From positions 1 through 63,878 of the forward strand of contig JBEKXK010000006.1 of the NCBI GenBank assembly GCA_049512055.1: a DNA stretch of 63,878 bases, given 5' to 3'. The notes beneath the pieces are model-generated. The model made no database searches and was not told the DNA's origin. It worked only from the letters and a program-made list of their open reading frames with translations. The translations under genes and the position numbers were made by a program. Source of the stretch: Syntrophales bacterium. Its GTDB lineage: Bacteria > Desulfobacterota > Syntrophia > Syntrophales > UBA2185. Within the stretch, counting starts at the first letter, position 1, and each line of letters starts with the position of its first letter. Positions 19,759 to 63,878 of the stretch are shown here, piece by piece.

Positions 19759-21366
19759 CTATTTCTTCAAATTACGATTTAGAGCTGCCCCGATAAATTT
19801 GCCGAAGAGTGGATGGGGACTCGTCGGCCGCGATTTAAATTCGGGGTGAAACTGGCACCCCAAAAACCACGGGTTGTCTTTGATCTCGACAATCTCGACA
19901 AGACGGCGATCAGGCGACGTCCCTGTAATATGCAGACCCTTCTCCACAAGGATATCTCGGAAACTGTTGTTCACTTCATAACGGTGCCTGTGTCTTTCAC
20001 TGATTTCACTGACACCGTAAGCATCAAATGCAAAAGAGCCGGCCTCTAAAAGGCAGGCGTAAGCGCCCAGCCTCATCGTTGCGCCCATCTCCGTGATACT
20101 TCTCTGCTCGGGTAGATAATCGATCACCGGATACGGGGTTTCCTTGTCAAATTCGGAGCTGTTCGCCCTTTCGAGTTTGCATACGTGCCGGGCGAATTCC
20201 ACAACGGCGAGCTGCATGCCCAGGCAGATGCCGAAATACGGAACCTTCTTCTCACGGGCAAATTGAATGGCGGTGATCATCCCCTCAATGCCGCGCTCTC
20301 CGAAGCCTCCAGGCACGAGGATACCGTCAGCGCCTTCCAGAAGGTCGCCTAACCCTTCTTTCTCGATCTTTTCCGAATCGACAAAACGCAGGTTTACCCG
20401 GCAGTTGTTTGCAATGCCCCCATGCACTAATGCTTCATTGAGGCTCTTGTAAGAATCCGTCAAATTCACGTATTTGCCCACTATGGCGATACACACTTCG
20501 TGGGGAGGATTTTTGATCTTGTCTGCCACGTCCTCCCATGCCTCCAGATGCGGCCTGCCCGTCCAGATGTTTAAGAGGTCGACAATTTTATTATCCACCC
20601 CTTCCTTGTGAAAAACTATTGGCACTTCATAGATGCACTGCACATCCTTTGCCGTAAATACGGATGAAACTTCCACATTACAGAAAAGAGCTATCTTGGC
20701 CTTGATTTCTTCGGGGAGAAAATCTTCCGTGCGGCACAAGAGAATGTCAGGTTGAATACCGATTTCACGGAGGGCCTTCACGCTGTGCTGCGTTGGTTTT
20801 GTCTTAACCTCCCCGGCGGTCTTCATGAAGGGGACCCATGTCAGATGTATAAATATGGCGTTTTGTTTTCCCACTTCGTTGCGGAATTGCCTGATTGCTT
20901 CCAGAAAGGGCTGGCTCTCAATGTCTCCGACGGTTCCGCCGACTTCAATGATCGCGACATCGAACCCGGCCGCGCAGCTCTTGATGTAATCTTTTATTTC
21001 ATCCGTAACATGGGGAATCACCTGCACCGTCTTGCCTAGATATTCCCCCTTCCTTTCCTTGGAAATTACCGAAAAATATACCTGACCAGACGTGAGATTA
21101 TTGCACTTCGCCATGCGGGTCGAGGTAAATCGCTCATAGTGCCCCAAGTCAAGGTCTGTTTCCGCGCCGTCGTCCGTCACAAAAACCTCGCCGTGCTGGA
21201 ATGGACTGAGGGTGCCGGGATCGACATTGATATACGGATCAAGCTTTTGATTGGTCACCCTGAGCCCCCGGCTTTCGAGAAGGGCTGCAATAGAAGCAGC
21301 CGCCAAGCCTTTGCCAAGGGAAGAGAGAACGCCGCCCGTCACAAAAATAAATTTTGTCTTCTTCAT
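19759..21366 (-). CDS. pyrG: CTP synthase
   Basis: [50 protein letters not shown]. Confidence 0.98.
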
Positions 21367-21381
21367 GATTGCTCCTGAAAT

Positions 21382-24300
21382 TTACTTGGCCTGAGAATTG
21401 CTGCTGTTCCCTCCCAGAGATTTTCTTATCTGACCCGCAATAACCTCCACCGTCTCGCCCAAGAGAATTCCTGTGGAAATATTTTCCAGATAGCCGTCAT
21501 CCCACTGCAGATTATATTCGTTAACGAGATTGCGGATGTCGTTGAATTTGTAGCCCAAGACTTCTTTCTTTCCTTTCACGGAAAGTAACTCGTTAAATTC
21601 CACGTGGATCAGGAGCAGGCTCCCTATGCCTCCTTTGTCTCCGAAAAGGGGAATAACGACGATGGAAGCGCAGTCGGCTTTTCCCCGCCCAATATATACA
21701 TGGCCGGTACTCACTATCGTCCTCTTGGTCCCCATGAGATTACTTGAACCTTCGGTCCTCGACTTCATCGTGAGTGAGATGCCCCCTCTGTCTTTAACAG
21801 TTATCGTCGAAGTATCCACGGGATTTCCTTCAGCGTCCAGATTATTAATGACATAGAGGGTATAACCGTTCAACGCGGCAATGGCCGGCTGAATCCTTGC
21901 GATGCTCAATACATTCTTGGTGACGATGGATTTGGTCGAGAATTCAAGTTGTCTTAATATGTCAAAGATAATACCCCTGAGAGGCTGCTCTTTCCTGCTT
22001 GTTCCGACTGTCACTGTTTTCGCCTGATGTCTGATGGCGTCTATCGGCCTGGAGAGCTCATCTACCGAGTGGCCGAGAGAGATGTCAAGCATCTCGACCG
22101 GGGATGATAGCCCCTCCTCACTCTTGAAATCGCTCCAGTAGTCTTCAAGAGGCAGTTTTCCGGCTGCATATTTGAGAAGAAGAACTATATCGGATATGGT
22201 ATTCACATTGGTGAATGAAAAGGCGCCGTCCGTTCTTCTTTGATTGAATTCAATCGAGAAATCCCTGACGAGCTTCCGGTAGTTTCTGTCGGCAAGCCTC
22301 TCGTAAATGGAATAATTTTTCTTCTCATGTTCCGCCATTATAAGATCGAGGTGGCTCCTGAATTCCCGCAAGAAGATGGCGTCTTCGTTAATGCTGCAAG
22401 CGGCATAGTAACCCCATAGATGTCCTGCCAGGGTATTTAAGATTACAGGCAGGGGCATCGCCGCCCTCGGCACCTCAACGACCGCATCGGCAACGCCGTC
22501 GAACCTCGCTTCACCTTCATCCGCAAAAACGACAACACCCGCCCTGTGCGCCTTGAAGATGGCCACATCTTTGATGATGTCTCCTGTCACAGTTTCCGGG
22601 CTGCCCGCTGCACAGACTATGATCAAAGGTTCGGCAGACAGGTCAATATGCTTCTTGTTTTCTATAAAATCTGACGATATCGTTTTGTAACAGAGCTCGC
22701 TCAGCTTTATCCTGATCTCATCTGCTGCCGCCTTGTTAGGCCCGTCTCCCACGATGGCCCAGTACCTTCTCTTTTTTGCCAGCAGTTCGACAGATTGCTT
22801 GATTTGCCCTTTCTTCTCTATCACCCTGTTCATCATGCTGGGCGCATGTTCGAGGTTGTGAAGCTCCTCGGCAATAAAGTCGTCGGAGACATTCGTAAGA
22901 AGCTGGGCAAGACAGAGCGCCAAGACATGCCCCGCCACAACCTGGGAGTAAAATGCCTTGGTTGAAGCCACGGACATCTCTATATCCCTGCCGTCGCTCG
23001 TATAAAAAACTCCGTTTGCCTTCCCTGTTATGTCGGATTGCCTTCTGTTGACGATGGCGATTACCGTCGCCCCCCGTTCCACAGCCATAGCTACGGCACG
23101 GTTGGTGTCTGTCGTCGTGCCCGACTGGGTGATGGGGATGACCAGCGTATCTTTCAGGTCATCCTCTAAAAAGAAGCCGCTCAATTCCGATGCGACCTTC
23201 GCGTCGATTTTGATATGAGTGCCTTTCAGATATCGTTGCAGTCCGTCGGCAACGGCCTCTCCGGCAACGGCGGCTGTACCGTGACCGATGACGATAATTC
23301 TCTTTGTCTCGCCGCGGGTGAAGGCCTGTCTCCATCCCTCCGGTATGATGTCCCGGCCAAGATTGAAGGTAACTTCATATCTTCCATTTTCTCTTTTTGA
23401 GATTCTATATTTGCCGCGCAGCGTTTTTCTTACGGAGAGAGTTGCTTCAGATATTTCTTTCAGGAAATAATGCGGATAATTACCCCGATCTATATCACGG
23501 GTGGTGATTTCTGCCTTCTGCACGGAGTCGCTTCCCATGGAGAGAGAAGTCCCGTCGTAAAAAAGCGCGCTGATCCCCGCAAGTCCCCCTTGAGAGTTCT
23601 GTTCAAGGATGAATATCTGTCCTGATGCTTCAGGTGCATCGTCTGAGGAAGGCCTTTCGCCGTCCATCTTCAGGAAAAACGGAGTGCCCTCCACGAGGCC
23701 ATAAAGTTCCGATGAAAATATATAATCCTCAGGGGCAAGGCCTACATAAATGGATTGCCCGCTGCCCTTCAAGGCAAGAAACACCTTCCCCGGCTCCGTA
23801 TTGCTGGTCATGCCGATGGCATGGGAGCCTTCAAATGCGTTTACGGCCAATCTGAACGCCTCGGTCAGATCATGCCCGGCAAGCAGATGCTTTTCAATTT
23901 GCAGGGGTATGATCTTCGTGTCAGTCGTAATATGAGGAGCAATGAGGTCTTCTCCCTCTTCAATCGCATTTCGCAGCGATTGATAATTGTCTATGTCTCC
24001 ATTGAGGATAACGTTAATGAACCAGCTTCCCTCGCCATAGAAAGGGTATTTTTTTATGATCTCCGGCCATGGAGCATCTTCACGGCCGCTGTTTCCGTTC
24101 ATGGTAAAGTTATTAATCGGATGGCAGTTTTCTTCCGTAATGGAACCCACTGATGCCCACCTTGTGTGGGATATGGAAGTCTCAAATTCCGTCTCCTCCT
24201 TGGATAATTCATAGAAAATCTTATCGTGGGAGATGAATCTTCTCAGATCCCTGACATTTTGACCGAGCTCGCCGATAATGGATGATGTCTTGTATACGAA

Positions 24301-25179
24301 CGCGATATCAATCCCTTTGCCCCGCGGACTACTCACGGATGGGATTGCATGAGAGACACAAATTGAACCGTTGATAAGGTCGCCTGCGCGGATCCTCGCG
24401 GAATAATCATCATACAGGCCTTTCTCTTTGAGCACGCTTAAGATATTCTCAAGCGATGCCGTATCGGAGAGCCTGAAGGATATCTGCATTCCCGCCGAGT
24501 CCCTTCCTCTTACCTCCAGCCTGTCGAGGCAATTCAGAAGAAAATTTATTTTCTTATATTTTGTAAAGGATACGGGAGAAATTTCTTTGACGCCGCCCGC
24601 TTCCGAGAGCCCCCTGATTTTTTCTATATTCTCGATTACGTCTTTCTCGAGACCCCAGATAATATCCTTCATCAGGATATGTCTGCTGTTTATCGTTTCC
24701 GTCTCCTCCGTCGGGAAGTTACCGGCGTTTTCTTCGAGGCCTTTTTCTTCGTCCAGGAAGAACAGCTTCATCTCGTTGGTGAGGTCCGACAGTTGAGAGG
24801 CGATGAGGGGTTTGAAATAGATTTCCTGAAATGCGGCGTCTGTCTTTAACTGGAAGAGCCTTTCTTCCATTTCCTGAAGCTTTCGGCCGCCCCCCAGATA
24901 TTGGCCGGGTGTTATAGAGCCGGCAGAGAGCGCCTTCATGTTATTCTTCTTGATGTCTCGGAAAAGCTTGGCAAGCTTCTTTATAAGGTCGCCTTCTTCA
25001 CGTTTGCCGACCCCTTTTATCGCCAGGATTCCGGCGAAGCCGCAGCAGACGATATCAGGAATTATCGGGAAGAAGACTATCGAGTATTCAGGAACCGTGT
25101 GTACATTAACGCCGACGTAGATCTTCCATTTCATGAGATAGTTGATTATTTCAGCGTACCATTGTCTTAATATCTGCAT
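21382..25179 (-). CDS. Very large GlmS-like glutamine amidotransferase/SIS isomerase (about 1265 aa)
   Basis: CGFAGI, LEVRGRDSAG, HTRWAS, NGDIDNY, QSGTTTDT, SVASTKAF, IKLSELCY, KKH and AKTVTVG map in order onto GlmS motifs, with large insertions. Start uncertain (ATG 25179 chosen). Confidence 0.8.
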   Translation of the reverse strand: MQILRQWYAEIINYLMKWKIYVGVNVHTVPEYSIVFFPIIPDIVCCGFAGILAIKGVGKREEGDLIKKLAKLFRDIKKNNMKALSAGSITPGQYLGGGRKLQEMEERLFQLKTDAAFQEIYFKPLIASQLSDLTNEMKLFFLDEEKGLEENAGNFPTEETETINSRHILMKDIIWGLEKDVIENIEKIRGLSEAGGVKEISPVSFTKYKKINFLLNCLDRLEVRGRDSAGMQISFRLSDTASLENILSVLKEKGLYDDYSARIRAGDLINGSICVSHAIPSVSSPRGKGIDIAFVYKTSSIIGELGQNVRDLRRFISHDKIFYELSKEETEFETSISHTRWASVGSITEENCHPINNFTMNGNSGREDAPWPEIIKKYPFYGEGSWFINVILNGDIDNYQSLRNAIEEGEDLIAPHITTDTKIIPLQIEKHLLAGHDLTEAFRLAVNAFEGSHAIGMTSNTEPGKVFLALKGSGQSIYVGLAPEDYIFSSELYGLVEGTPFFLKMDGERPSSDDAPEASGQIFILEQNSQGGLAGISALFYDGTSLSMGSDSVQKAEITTRDIDRGNYPHYFLKEISEATLSVRKTLRGKYRISKRENGRYEVTFNLGRDIIPEGWRQAFTRGETKRIIVIGHGTAAVAGEAVADGLQRYLKGTHIKIDAKVASELSGFFLEDDLKDTLVIPITQSGTTTDTNRAVAMAVERGATVIAIVNRRQSDITGKANGVFYTSDGRDIEMSVASTKAFYSQVVAGHVLALCLAQLLTNVSDDFIAEELHNLEHAPSMMNRVIEKKGQIKQSVELLAKKRRYWAIVGDGPNKAAADEIRIKLSELCYKTISSDFIENKKHIDLSAEPLIIVCAAGSPETVTGDIIKDVAIFKAHRAGVVVFADEGEARFDGVADAVVEVPRAAMPLPVILNTLAGHLWGYYAACSINEDAIFLREFRSHLDLIMAEHEKKNYSIYERLADRNYRKLVRDFSIEFNQRRTDGAFSFTNVNTISDIVLLLKYAAGKLPLEDYWSDFKSEEGLSSPVEMLDISLGHSVDELSRPIDAIRHQAKTVTVGTSRKEQPLRGIIFDILRQLEFSTKSIVTKNVLSIARIQPAIAALNGYTLYVINNLDAEGNPVDTSTITVKDRGGISLTMKSRTEGSSNLMGTKRTIVSTGHVYIGRGKADCASIVVIPLFGDKGGIGSLLLIHVEFNELLSVKGKKEVLGYKFNDIRNLVNEYNLQWDDGYLENISTGILLGETVEVIAGQIRKSLGGNSSNSQAK

Positions 25180-25220
25180 ATGAAAATCCTCAAAGTCCCG
25201 ATTTCGTCTAATTGATGGCG

Positions 25221-26480
25221 TCAGGAGTTGCAGGACGGCAAATGCATTAATGCCGCATGGATGACATGATCTACAAGGTTTTGCAGCCATGCCGTTCCCT
25301 TGATTGATGCATCTCTATTTAGGCTCTGAATGACCGTTATATAATCACCTTCATCTTTCATTCTGTTACGAATGAGTTTAATGAATGAGTCCCTATTCTT
25401 GAGATCAACAGATACTTCTTTCCCGGTGGTGAAAGTCTCCTCAAGCCTCGGCCAATTTTCGCTCAATTCATTTTTCTGTTTGAGAAGCTCTTCCTGCGTG
25501 CCTTTTTTCATGGCATCTCTGCCCAGCTCTATTGATGTTTCCATTTTGAGAGACAGGTCTTTGAAGCGCTTCAATCTTTCATCAATGGCAATTTCAAGCT
25601 TGTCCATGGCCCCGGCATACAGCTCCGCGCCCATATGCTCCTGTTGAAAAAAGGGTTGCCGGACGTGGGCATACCACTGTCTTAAGGCCAAGAGGTTGGC
25701 GATGTAGCAGATGTTATTATAGACGCGATGCTTGATACTTCTGTAAAAACCTGCACGAAAGGATTTGTCGTGGGTGGGGATGTCTCTTTCCGTTATTAAT
25801 CTGTTTCCTTTAGGATAATCCCTCCTGCAAACCACTCCCGCCGCGGTCACGCTGCCGTAACCGATTCTGACAGGGCCGACCAGGCCTCCCTGACCCCCCA
25901 AGAAAATGGGCGGTTGGTTTAACATTACGCCTCTGGGTACGTCGCCGATGAGTGAAGGTGTGGCTTTATCCTGGTTGGGTGTGTAATTGAAATGTATATA
26001 GGAGCTTCCAACTTCGCTGTGATTTTTCCGGCTCGTTCCGCCTGCCATGAAACAGTCACAAAAGTTGATGAGGCTGCCCAAGGTTACAAATGGGAAGAGT
26101 ATGGTCTGCTTTAATCCGACTGTATGATTCGCATTGGCCTCTTCTTCGAGGATACATCCTTCACGGACCTGCGCGCCGCATGCCACGGTCGCCTTGCGCA
26201 GAAAGACGGATGATTTAAAAAATCCCCCTCTCAGCTCGACATCCGGTCCGGTTTGACAATCGACGACGGTTGCCGGCGCCTCATATCCCAGCTTGGTTCC
26301 CGGAGAGATCAGGGTTTTTAACCCATAGATCCTGGTTCCGGGATAAATGGATACGCCGTCGCCGGAAATCCTCTCCGGAACTATTTCTTCCCCGATATCT
26401 ACAGAAAAGGGGCTCGGTATATTGACCCCCTTTTCCATCAATTTAACTATGTTATGTGACAGGCTAACGTTTAGTTTCAC
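25221..26480 (-). CDS. GlmU-acetyltransferase-like left-handed beta-helix protein with no uridylyltransferase domain
   Basis: LMEKGVNI start, hexapeptide repeats, GAQVREG, VGLKQT, EVGSSYIHFNY, GPVRIG..SVTAAG resemble the GlmU C-domain. Start is GTG 26480 or ATG 26438. Confidence 0.7.
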   Translation of the reverse strand: MKLNVSLSHNIVKLMEKGVNIPSPFSVDIGEEIVPERISGDGVSIYPGTRIYGLKTLISPGTKLGYEAPATVVDCQTGPDVELRGGFFKSSVFLRKATVACGAQVREGCILEEEANANHTVGLKQTILFPFVTLGSLINFCDCFMAGGTSRKNHSEVGSSYIHFNYTPNQDKATPSLIGDVPRGVMLNQPPIFLGGQGGLVGPVRIGYGSVTAAGVVCRRDYPKGNRLITERDIPTHDKSFRAGFYRSIKHRVYNNICYIANLLALRQWYAHVRQPFFQQEHMGAELYAGAMDKLEIAIDERLKRFKDLSLKMETSIELGRDAMKKGTQEELLKQKNELSENWPRLEETFTTGKEVSVDLKNRDSFIKLIRNRMKDEGDYITVIQSLNRDASIKGTAWLQNLVDHVIHAALMHLPSCNS

Positions 26481-26778
26481 GACTGATGCCCAGCTTGGCC
26501 ATTTTTTTCTGGAATGTGTTTCTGTTGATTCCAAGGTAATTGGCTGCAGCACTCTTGACATTACCATTCCGCTTAAGGGCAATCTTGAAAAGACATCTTT
26601 CCACCATGATCAAAACTTCTTCATGCAATCTGCTTTTCCTTTTTTTCCCATCACCGACTTGACAGAGGACTGTAGAAATGTCTTCAAGCTTTTTTTCCAT
26701 AGCCTCCTCAATAAGCGCATATGGCTTTGCCTGAACATTTTGATCCACAGCTACAGATTTTGTTTTCTTGCGTTTCAT
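26464..26778 (-). CDS. Stand-alone Fis-like HTH protein
   Basis: VERCLFKIALKRNGNVKSAAANYLGINRNTFQKKM is a Fis/HTH_8 pattern. Confidence 0.85.
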   Translation of the reverse strand: MKRKKTKSVAVDQNVQAKPYALIEEAMEKKLEDISTVLCQVGDGKKRKSRLHEEVLIMVERCLFKIALKRNGNVKSAAANYLGINRNTFQKKMAKLGISRETKR

Positions 26779-26870: not shown

Positions 26871-27389
26871 TTATGAGGTAAACAGTTTTGTGATTATGAT
26901 CCCTGCAAGTACCACAGCCGTAAACCAGGTCATAACGATATCCGACATATTATTTGCAGGATGTTCAATCTGTCTCCTGACTTCTTCTTCCACCTTTTCA
27001 TTGTCCATATGACCGACAAGTTCACTGACGAGAGTGGAAAACTTTTCATACGCGTTAGATAGAATATAAAATCCCTTCACTGTAGTCAACAGGATATATA
27101 CCCTTTTTCTCAGTATAAGAGCGCCAATATGAGTTATATCCTCCCAGCGGAGTTCTTTTTTCCGCATGAATTTCCTGATCATGATGCCATGGTCTCCCGT
27201 TTGGACCATGCGGAATGAAGATTCGAAAAGAACATAAAGAACGGGCATGAAGATAGCAGTAAGCAATATTCTTTCTAATCTCGACCCACTCAGGAAATAC
27301 GACAGCAGGACAAGGAGGAAGAGGAGAATAAAATCAACGAAAAAGGGAAATAAAAACGACCTTCTTATTCTATAGACGTTTTGATACAT
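26871..27389 (-). CDS. Membrane protein with a probable bacterial PH-like domain
   Basis: Two N-terminal TMs, GIMIRKFMRKKELRWEDI motif, C-terminal TM. Confidence 0.65.
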   Translation of the reverse strand: MYQNVYRIRRSFLFPFFVDFILLFLLVLLSYFLSGSRLERILLTAIFMPVLYVLFESSFRMVQTGDHGIMIRKFMRKKELRWEDITHIGALILRKRVYILLTTVKGFYILSNAYEKFSTLVSELVGHMDNEKVEEEVRRQIEHPANNMSDIVMTWFTAVVLAGIIITKLFTS

Positions 27390-27423: not shown

Positions 27424-27903
27424 TTAGTTATCTCTAATAAAGAGGCCGCTCTTGCCGCCATGTTTTGTGATTAATTTGATGTCCGAAAGAACTATGTTTT
27501 TATCGGCGGATTTGCACATATCGTAAATTGTGAGAGCCGCAACGCTGACGGCGGTCATGGCCTCCATCTCCACCCCTGTTCTACCTACAGTCTTCACAGT
27601 CGCTTCAATGGTTATTTCGCCGGAATCCGCATCTTTCGTAAACCTTATGTCAATACCTGTCAATTCCAAAGGGTGGCACATAGGGATCATTTCGCTTGTC
27701 TTTTTGGCTGCCATGATCCCCGCAATCTTGGCTACAACGAAGACATCTCCCTTAGGTATCTCTCCCTTTTCGATGAGGCTCAACGTCTTTTTTTTCATCA
27801 GGACCTTCCCTCGGGCAACGGCCTTTCGTACGGATCGTTCCTTTTCCGTTACATCAACCATCTTGGCCTTGCCTTTATCATCGAGGTGGGAGAACTTAGT
27901 CAT
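27424..27903 (-). CDS. moaC: Cyclic pyranopterin monophosphate synthase
   Basis: FSHLD..MVDV, KGDV, IPMCHP, TGVEMEA, IYDMCK, KHGGKSG. Confidence 0.97.
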   Translation of the reverse strand: MTKFSHLDDKGKAKMVDVTEKERSVRKAVARGKVLMKKKTLSLIEKGEIPKGDVFVVAKIAGIMAAKKTSEMIPMCHPLELTGIDIRFTKDADSGEITIEATVKTVGRTGVEMEAMTAVSVAALTIYDMCKSADKNIVLSDIKLITKHGGKSGLFIRDN

Positions 27904-63761: not shown

Positions 63762-63878
63762 GTGCGCCGTGAAAAGGCGCTGTTTTTCAACGGGAGCGAA
63801 TCCCGTCCGGCAACTTTCGCTCCAGCCGGTAGCAATCAGGGCAGTCGTGGAGGCAACGAAGCGGCTGAAGCCTCTGAT
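63762..63878 (+). mobile_element. 5' end of a group II intron, truncated by the window edge
   Basis: GTGCG 5' consensus, hairpin ACGGGAGCGAATCCCGT, CCGG...GCTCCAGCCGG, and GTCGTGGAGGCAACGAAGCGGC with a GNRA loop. All are typical of domain I. Confidence 0.75.

Follow-up and report, generated by a model that had tools for sequence, protein, structure and literature searches.

The window analysed here, i.e., the whole stretch of 63,878 nt from a Syntrophales bacterium (UBA2185; GCA_049512055.1, contig JBEKXK010000006.1, positions 1–63,878), carries a minus-strand gene for a protein of 1265 amino acids (aa) related to glucosamine-6-phosphate (GlcN6P) synthase, GlmS. This protein, termed long-form GlmS in the following, contains three additional modules and has its putative N-terminal nucleophile (Ntn), Cys46, behind a leader of 45 residues (Table 1). 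The maximum open reading frame (ORF) on this strand runs from 25290 to 21382. The ATG at 25290 lies within the upstream gene, whose end is at 25221; because of this position, the GAGGA ribosome-binding site and the N-termini of close homologues, which represent the equivalent MQIL... start, we favour ATG 25179 as the best-supported start. At the position of the second candidate start, Met16 (ATG 25134), more distant homologues have K, R, or L. The entry for the gene in a public protein collection (1250 aa) begins at this Met16, which has no ribosome-binding site. Cys46 lies 45 residues downstream of ATG 25179 and 30 residues downstream of ATG 25134, and no start codon abuts it. The codons read as stated in the original prediction, which had placed the Cys-Gly pair after GTC TGC without an adjacent start codon and with 30 to 45 residues in front. 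The same architecture was found in the 120 homologues listed among 6837 matches and is thus not due to chance. Relatives occur in at least 592 species genomes (scan with one genome per species), the record titles of which include Syntrophus, Smithella, Syntrophales, Desulfomonilia, Desulfobacterales, and Desulfosarcinaceae. Neither a glmS ribozyme nor another RNA family was found near the gene with Rfam, and promoter and terminator scans remained at chance level. A look-up of RNA sequencing data for the region yielded no run.

Table 1. Positions of the long-form glmS gene, its parts, and other features in the window
Feature	Position	Strand	Remarks
pyrG (CTP synthase)	19759..21366	-	15 nt downstream of the long-form GlmS gene; Pfam CTP_synth_N + GATase
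Long-form GlmS gene	21382..25179	-	1265 aa + stop; ORF and translation
Family-specific C-terminal alpha/beta domain, residues 1063–1265 (203 aa)	21385..21993	-	pLDDT about 85–90
QAKTVTVGTSRK, counterpart of the K603-holding GlmS C-terminal lid	21994..22029	-	superposes on the end of 4amv_A
Helical insert, residues 929–1050 (122 aa), before the catalytic tail	22030..22395	-	helices 356–497 of the C-half model
Isomerase domain, two SIS subdomains, residues 561–928	22396..23499	-	
Class II (Ntn) glutaminase core, residues 212–560, with smaller inserts	23500..24546	-	
Helical insert in the glutaminase domain, residues 57–211 (155 aa), after strand beta1 and before helix alpha1	24547..25011	-	
Cys46-Gly47, putative Ntn nucleophile	25039..25044	-	TGC GGC; preceding codon TGC (Cys45)
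Leader, residues 1–45	25045..25179	-	predicted beta-hairpin; conserved G23, F37-P38, L44
Ribosome-binding site GAGGA	25187..25191	-	7 nt upstream of ATG 25179; read from sequence
P0002, GlmU C-half-like hexapeptide (left-handed beta-helix, LbH) protein, about 419 aa	25221..26480	-	ORF open to 26582
Fis-family helix-turn-helix protein	26464..26778	-	
172-aa protein without Pfam family	26871..27389	-	
MoaC	27424..27903	-	
Group II intron start (Rfam RF02003, domains 1–4)	63788..63878	+	61.5 bits; cut by the window end

The original prediction had noted an extra stretch after the Cys-Gly pair, an insert before the AKTVTV motif, and a tail of about 200 aa. These could be located as the helical insert after strand beta1, the second helical insert, and the C-terminal domain, respectively; 207 aa follow AKTVTV. 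AlphaFold (AF2) was used to calculate two models from 47-row alignments, one for the N-terminal and one for the C-terminal half, with a mean predicted local distance difference test score (pLDDT) of 80.0 and 82.7, respectively. The N-terminal insert was modelled as long helices (pLDDT about 90) outside the superposition on GlmS, which begins at model residue 188–191, and the leader as two strands (residues 19–22 and 33–36, pLDDT about 70). The matches in fold searches with both models were filled by GlmS domains, the folds of the tail and of the helical inserts being barely covered. Among 71 leader-bearing relatives, the mean pairwise identity was 0.30 for the leader, 0.55 for beta1, 0.26 for the N-terminal insert, 0.51 for the glutaminase core, 0.58 and 0.69 for the first and second SIS subdomain, 0.42 for the C-terminal insert, 0.99 for the lid, and 0.44 for the tail domain.

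A profile of 32 tail sequences matched none of the PDB sequences at E ≤ 10. Pfam, searched up to E ≤ 1, gave six weak matches without a consistent family, the commonest being seen in two of the 32 members. When searched against 1.84 billion representative proteins, the profile retrieved 362 with E ≤ 0.001, of which 247 had E ≤ 1e-10 and 86 had E ≤ 1e-30. In the rows listed, the domain nearly always extended up to the C-terminal end, and the full-length proteins among them comprised 1135–1260 aa, apart from two of about 1540 aa. Three short matches whose sequences were inspected have their N-terminal end within the lid motif or exactly at it and look like fragments. Because of the C-terminal position in long forms and the fragment-like short matches, the tail domain appears to be specific to the long-form GlmS family. 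Its feature matches in the Atlas reached scores of 0.80 at most and led to unnamed clusters. The two proteins of about 1540 aa (P0243 and P0272) are distant relatives with the same tail domain at the C-terminal end and a very diverged glutaminase-like N-terminal part, in which Pfam recognizes almost nothing and a GCSVGGG motif is located about 70 residues from the N-terminus. A role of the three extra modules in regulation or assembly would be a guess, and the regulatory or partner-binding nature of the extra domains in the original prediction is likewise putative.

With Pfam, a single SIS domain was recognized in long-form GlmS, and class II GATase matched weakly. In a phmmer search against PDB sequences, the protein aligned with E. 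coli GlmS in three pieces (residues 197–218 to 14–35, 316–339 to 64–87, and 372–913 to 92–589; numbered from Met16, P0003, hence 15 is to be added for the numbering from ATG 25179 used here). The N-terminal class II (Ntn) glutaminase fold is present, and so is the two-SIS isomerase fold with its phosphate loop and the equivalents of K485/E488, H504, and K603; the retention of these equivalents had been stated in the original prediction. In the glutaminase domain, R26 of the E. coli enzyme corresponds to R224, R73/W74/T76 to R340/W341/S343, N98/G99 to N393/G394, and D123 to D420, and these residues are invariant across 47 sequences. Cys46 and Gly47 are found in 71 of 71 relatives and are likewise invariant in two other family alignments. 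In the isomerase domain, the S347-Q348-S349-T352 loop is represented by T-Q-S-T and V399–K403 by VASTKAF, whereas K485/E488 are found in RIKLSE, H504 in KKH, and K603 in QAKTVTV. The great majority of the catalytic equivalents are invariant in the family alignments, and all residues of E. coli GlmS that bind fructose-6-phosphate (Fru6P) or GlcN6P are kept in the long form.

The leader was compared across 89 related loci (L014 to L102). The leader motif was present in 72 and a variant of it in one (L082), five loci were leaderless, and the N-terminus was cut by a contig end in eight and masked in three. Across 71 relatives, the 32 residues before the Cys align without a single gap, with V/I20 conserved in 63, G23 in 63, I/V35 in 69, F37 in 66, P38 in 70, and L44 in 55 of them. 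The residue preceding the Cys varies (C in 28, N in 14, F in nine, A in six, and others), as does its codon (TGC, TTT, AAC, TAC, GCC, CCG, and others). Only two leader forms have a start codon at this position, L055 (ATG) and L059 (TTG), and both have kept the leader; in L015 and L019, the sole start candidate is located 55 and 30 codons upstream, respectively. Third codon positions within the leader are the most variable (0.67 vs. 0.52 and 0.43; 35 of 81 sequences, which matched a narrower motif). The gapless alignment, the conserved residues, the non-start codon before the Cys, and the third-position variation together indicate that the leader is translated and under selection.

Seven long-form loci lack the leader (L020, L021, L069, L091, L099, L110, and L111). 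In all of them, the start codon (ATG; TTG in L021) abuts the Cys codon, and a stop codon is found 2–13 codons further upstream. The proteins encoded by L020 and L021 have a length of 1127–1163 aa; the identity to P0040, which in turn shares 65% identity with the long-form GlmS described here, is 85% for L110 and 83% for L111. A quick IQ-TREE analysis (LG+G4, SH-like approximate likelihood ratio test) included 86 rows, namely 73 leader forms, five leaderless forms, six of seven canonical GlmS fetched, and the two 1540-aa forms. Loci with missing, masked, or short N-termini, one canonical row failing the filter, and L110/L111 were excluded. The long forms were separated from canonical GlmS (support 99–100). 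L020 and L021 formed the sister group of the remaining 76 long forms (support 88). Nested within the leader forms were L091 and, as a pair, L069 and L099; leaderless forms thus occurred in at least three places. An order in which leaderless forms came first and the leader was gained later is a suggestion of this topology, and the joining of L020/L021 near the canonical enzymes may be due to long-branch attraction. What stands, as judged from the alignments and the tree, is that the leader has been lost several times and that the start codon came to lie exactly at the Cys each time. Since all seven leaderless relatives begin exactly at the Cys, the mature enzyme seems to need an N-terminal Cys, which would imply removal of the leader where it is present; such starts would be hard to explain if the leader were able to stay on. 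We consider removal of the leader to be probable. The propeptide-activated amidotransferase put forward in the original prediction is supported in this way by comparison only, i.e., by the translated and conserved leader, the invariant Cys46 and glutaminase residues, and relatives starting with Met-Cys or Leu-Cys.

Whether a canonical glmS lies elsewhere had been raised with the original prediction; in this genome (92% complete, 183 contigs), no match exceeded the cut-off of a model that recognized 14 of 14 control genomes. The same holds true for the order, with none of 101 genomes above the cut-off. The long form was detected in 87 of these (best E 1e-45 or better, open frames of mostly 1200–1440 aa), while five of the remaining genomes gave only PurF-like matches and nine gave nothing at E ≤ 1e-30. 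In a phylum sample of 201 genomes, canonical GlmS was present in 171, the long-form tail in 19, and both in none. The long form therefore seems to have replaced canonical GlmS in the whole order and in parts of neighbouring Thermodesulfobacteriota orders, and the gene in the window most probably encodes the GlcN6P synthase of the organism. Two findings had been named with the original prediction as refuting it, a start directly before the Cys and a protein that is the only GlmS and has standard activity. The former is not so, in agreement with the original prediction, whereas the gene is indeed the only GlmS-like gene found, and for this reason no special additional function has to be assumed.

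The gene context fits the hexosamine pathway. P0002, encoded directly upstream of long-form GlmS, matched positions 240–436 of the NCBIfam GlmU model (E 1e-9 to 1e-12) and has a helical C-terminal part; it had no sequence match in the PDB and no match in Pfam. In the Atlas, it is represented from residue 35 of the ORF, and its clusters are automatically named "UDP-N-acetylglucosamine pyrophosphorylase family". Among 80 related loci, many of which end at contig edges, a P0002 homologue adjoins long-form GlmS, before or after it, in 22, and pyrG is found in 42. Homologues of the Fis-family, 172-aa, and MoaC genes further upstream were seen in 20–22 of the same loci. Out of nine more distant loci, only L014 has an adjoining P0002 homologue. 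The P0002 family was found in 28 of the 201 phylum genomes, comprising all 13 with leader-type long-form GlmS and 15 with canonical GlmS, and in none of the six with the leaderless type of 1130–1165 aa. Binding of P0002 to the extra domains was considered and dropped; in view of its occurrence in the 15 genomes with canonical GlmS, the family cannot be dependent on these domains. A full-length GlmU match was obtained in two of the 28 genomes (G238 and G269); G252 had a match over the cut-off but truncated (positions 2–357), and most others had the N-terminal part alone or none. In the genome studied here, the uridyltransferase half of GlmU is a separate frame of 258 codons (G000:C10:1367-2083), and GlmU appears to be split. 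Because so few P0002-family genomes show a full-length GlmU, P0002 is a candidate for a stand-alone glucosamine-1-phosphate acetyltransferase, which fits the pathway context of long-form GlmS. GlmM of this genome is canonical (594 bits), and no match to nagB was found in it.

We propose that the Ntn glutaminase and the two-SIS isomerase domain of the long form carry out ordinary GlmS chemistry, converting glutamine and Fru6P to glutamate and GlcN6P, and that long-form GlmS is synthesized in a proenzyme form. Its leader of 45 residues would be cut off, probably through autocatalysis by Cys46, similar to other Ntn enzymes; Cys46 would thereby obtain the free alpha-amino group that glutamine hydrolysis requires in class II amidotransferases. 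In enzymes of this class, residues preceding the Cys are cleaved autocatalytically (PMC9140057, section 6.1). In the PurF of the same genome (L002, G000:C42; ORF from locus base 1459), the nucleophile Cys is preceded by 14 residues (MSQYFIPASKPKEE), the last of them encoded by GAA; this PurF is, judged by its sequence, an Ntn amidotransferase of the propeptide type. Three AsnB-like genes of the genome start with ATG-TGY (Met-Cys). The activity, the cleavage, and the cleavage mechanism of long-form GlmS are what we infer from these comparisons, and for the combination of both parts, a GlcN6P synthase that is made as a proenzyme, our confidence is moderate. A further step, zymogen control, seems rather doubtful: the leader hairpin would shut the glutaminase until assembly or until a metabolite binds via the family-specific modules, whereupon Cys46 would cut the leader, which may then remain bound as a small subunit, similar to two-chain Ntn hydrolases. 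A complex prediction of the leader (residues 1–45) with the mature N-terminal half (residues 46–575), run without controls, scored 0.00, compared with a mark of 0.32, and favours neither side. If true, zymogen control would be a type of GlmS regulation unlike the known systems based on small RNAs, a ribozyme, or feedback by UDP-N-acetylglucosamine.

Several points weigh against a GlcN6P synthase made as a proenzyme. The scores of the protein with the NCBIfam glmS models were below the curated cut-offs (223.4 vs. 418 bits for TIGR01135, 243.3 vs. 381 for NF001484), and three residues of the E. coli enzyme, T76, H77, and S303, are replaced by S, V, and A. In the model, residues 47–62 have a pLDDT < 50 and superposition with GlmS starts at residue 10 of the latter, so that the Cys strand is not placed and the location of Cys46 at the Ntn site is not evident from the model. 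In the order, 14 of the 101 genomes (including G004, G026, G095, G073, and G044) have neither form of GlmS, and in five of these, which are 97–100% complete, the tail and the isomerase part are missing as well. This could be due to gaps in the assemblies or to a different source of GlcN6P. Moreover, the genomes compared are kin, and the either/or pattern represents few independent events. A conserved leader of fixed length could also be a permanent structural part of the protein, and the amidotransferase propeptides known to us are short or poorly conserved.

If the leader stayed in place, the glutaminase would be blocked or altered and Fru6P would be aminated with free ammonia, or movement of the leader would gate the use of glutamine. 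The conservation of its sequence and length and the predicted hairpin are as expected of a permanent element, and high ammonium levels are common where such anaerobes live. However, there is no variation in Cys46, Gly47, or any of the residues that bind glutamine, although an ammonia-only enzyme would have no reason to preserve them, and the starts of the leaderless relatives are never located a few residues upstream of the Cys, which argues for the need of a free N-terminal Cys. A permanent leader is unlikely in view of these residues and starts, and the ammonia-dependent enzyme considered in the original prediction is disfavoured by the preservation of the whole glutamine site.

The identity of the enzyme as the housekeeping GlmS was also questioned. 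Instead, it could serve as a sugar-phosphate sensor, or as an amidotransferase with a different ketose phosphate or a different amino sugar, with GlcN6P coming from elsewhere, as the scores under the cut-offs, the three extra modules, and the 14 related genomes that seem to manage with neither form might suggest. The preserved Fru6P/GlcN6P-binding residues, a catalytic tail motif that is 99% identical throughout the family, and the lack of any coexistence with canonical GlmS in the 201 genomes speak against this, as do the presence of GlmM and GlmU-like genes and the absence of a nagB match in the genome, making this a distinctly improbable explanation. On the same grounds, i.e., the substrate-site residues, the mutual exclusion with canonical GlmS in the sampled genomes, the canonical GlmM, and the GlmU-like neighbour, the different amino-sugar product suggested originally is not supported.

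A mis-set start, in which an unusual codon immediately upstream of Cys46 initiates translation and the supposed leader is untranslated 5′ sequence, would comply with the general rule of Met-Cys in GlmS, which is all that speaks for it; the varied codon before the Cys, the 32 in-frame, gapless codons with conserved residues in 71 relatives, the higher variability of third codon positions, and the ribosome-binding site before ATG 25179 make it very improbable. Lipoproteins have a small residue at position −1 and Leu at −3 of the lipobox. Export and cleavage before a lipidated Cys, for which only the Cys behind a partly hydrophobic N-terminal stretch and a nearby Leu might be quoted, is hardly conceivable for this leader, which has mostly C, N, or F at −1 (Ala in 6 of 71), its Leu at −2, and a hydrophobic run broken by prolines, and belongs to an enzyme that uses glutamine and Fru6P and hence works in the cytoplasm.

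GlmS carries out the committed step in the synthesis of amino-sugar polymers such as peptidoglycan and lipopolysaccharide and is a textbook example of a Met-Cys Ntn amidotransferase. The enzyme that seems to replace it here is twice as long and includes three modules, together about 480 residues, without a match to any described family. A search of full-text literature, most subscription journals being outside its scope, yielded no account of a GlmS that is long or has a leader, and many database records are named "SIS domain-containing protein" or GlmS by transfer. The long form is a new variant within a known enzyme, GlmS. If confirmed, it would add a proenzyme step to the biology of GlmS and three new domains to be explained. 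The present finding also corrects automatic annotation; in pathway reconstructions, such genomes would be scored as lacking GlmS. Since the leaderless relatives are natural controls for the contribution of the leader, the question is directly testable.

Compared with bacterial GlmS (EC 2.6.1.16; E. coli; PDB 1xff, 1jxa, 2j6h, 4amv; TIGR01135, NF001484), the long form is about 22–25% identical and twice the length. The bacterial enzymes start with Met-Cys, end just after the K603 lid, and comprise about 600–700 aa, whereas the long form has 1265 aa including the leader and the additional 155-aa insert after beta1, 122-aa insert before the lid, and 203-aa C-terminal domain. Eukaryotic GFAT also begins with Met-Cys; GFAT1 (PDB 6r4e and others, about 680 aa) has neither a leader nor the C-terminal extra domain, and its insert is located at another place. 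The leaderless long forms share the inserts and the tail domain with the protein described here and differ by their Met-Cys or Leu-Cys start. To our knowledge, no GlmS with a propeptide has been reported. Propeptides of other amidotransferases reportedly comprise 11 aa in B. subtilis PurF and about 36–42 aa in GltB. In PurF of the B. subtilis type (PDB 1gph, 1ao0) and in GltB, the large subunit of glutamate synthase, the Ntn Cys is encoded behind residues whose removal activates the glutaminase (PMC9140057, section 6.1). Long-form GlmS resembles these enzymes in that residues are encoded before the Cys and no start codon is present at the Cys, but its leader differs from the propeptides of PurF and GltB by conserved motifs and a fixed length.

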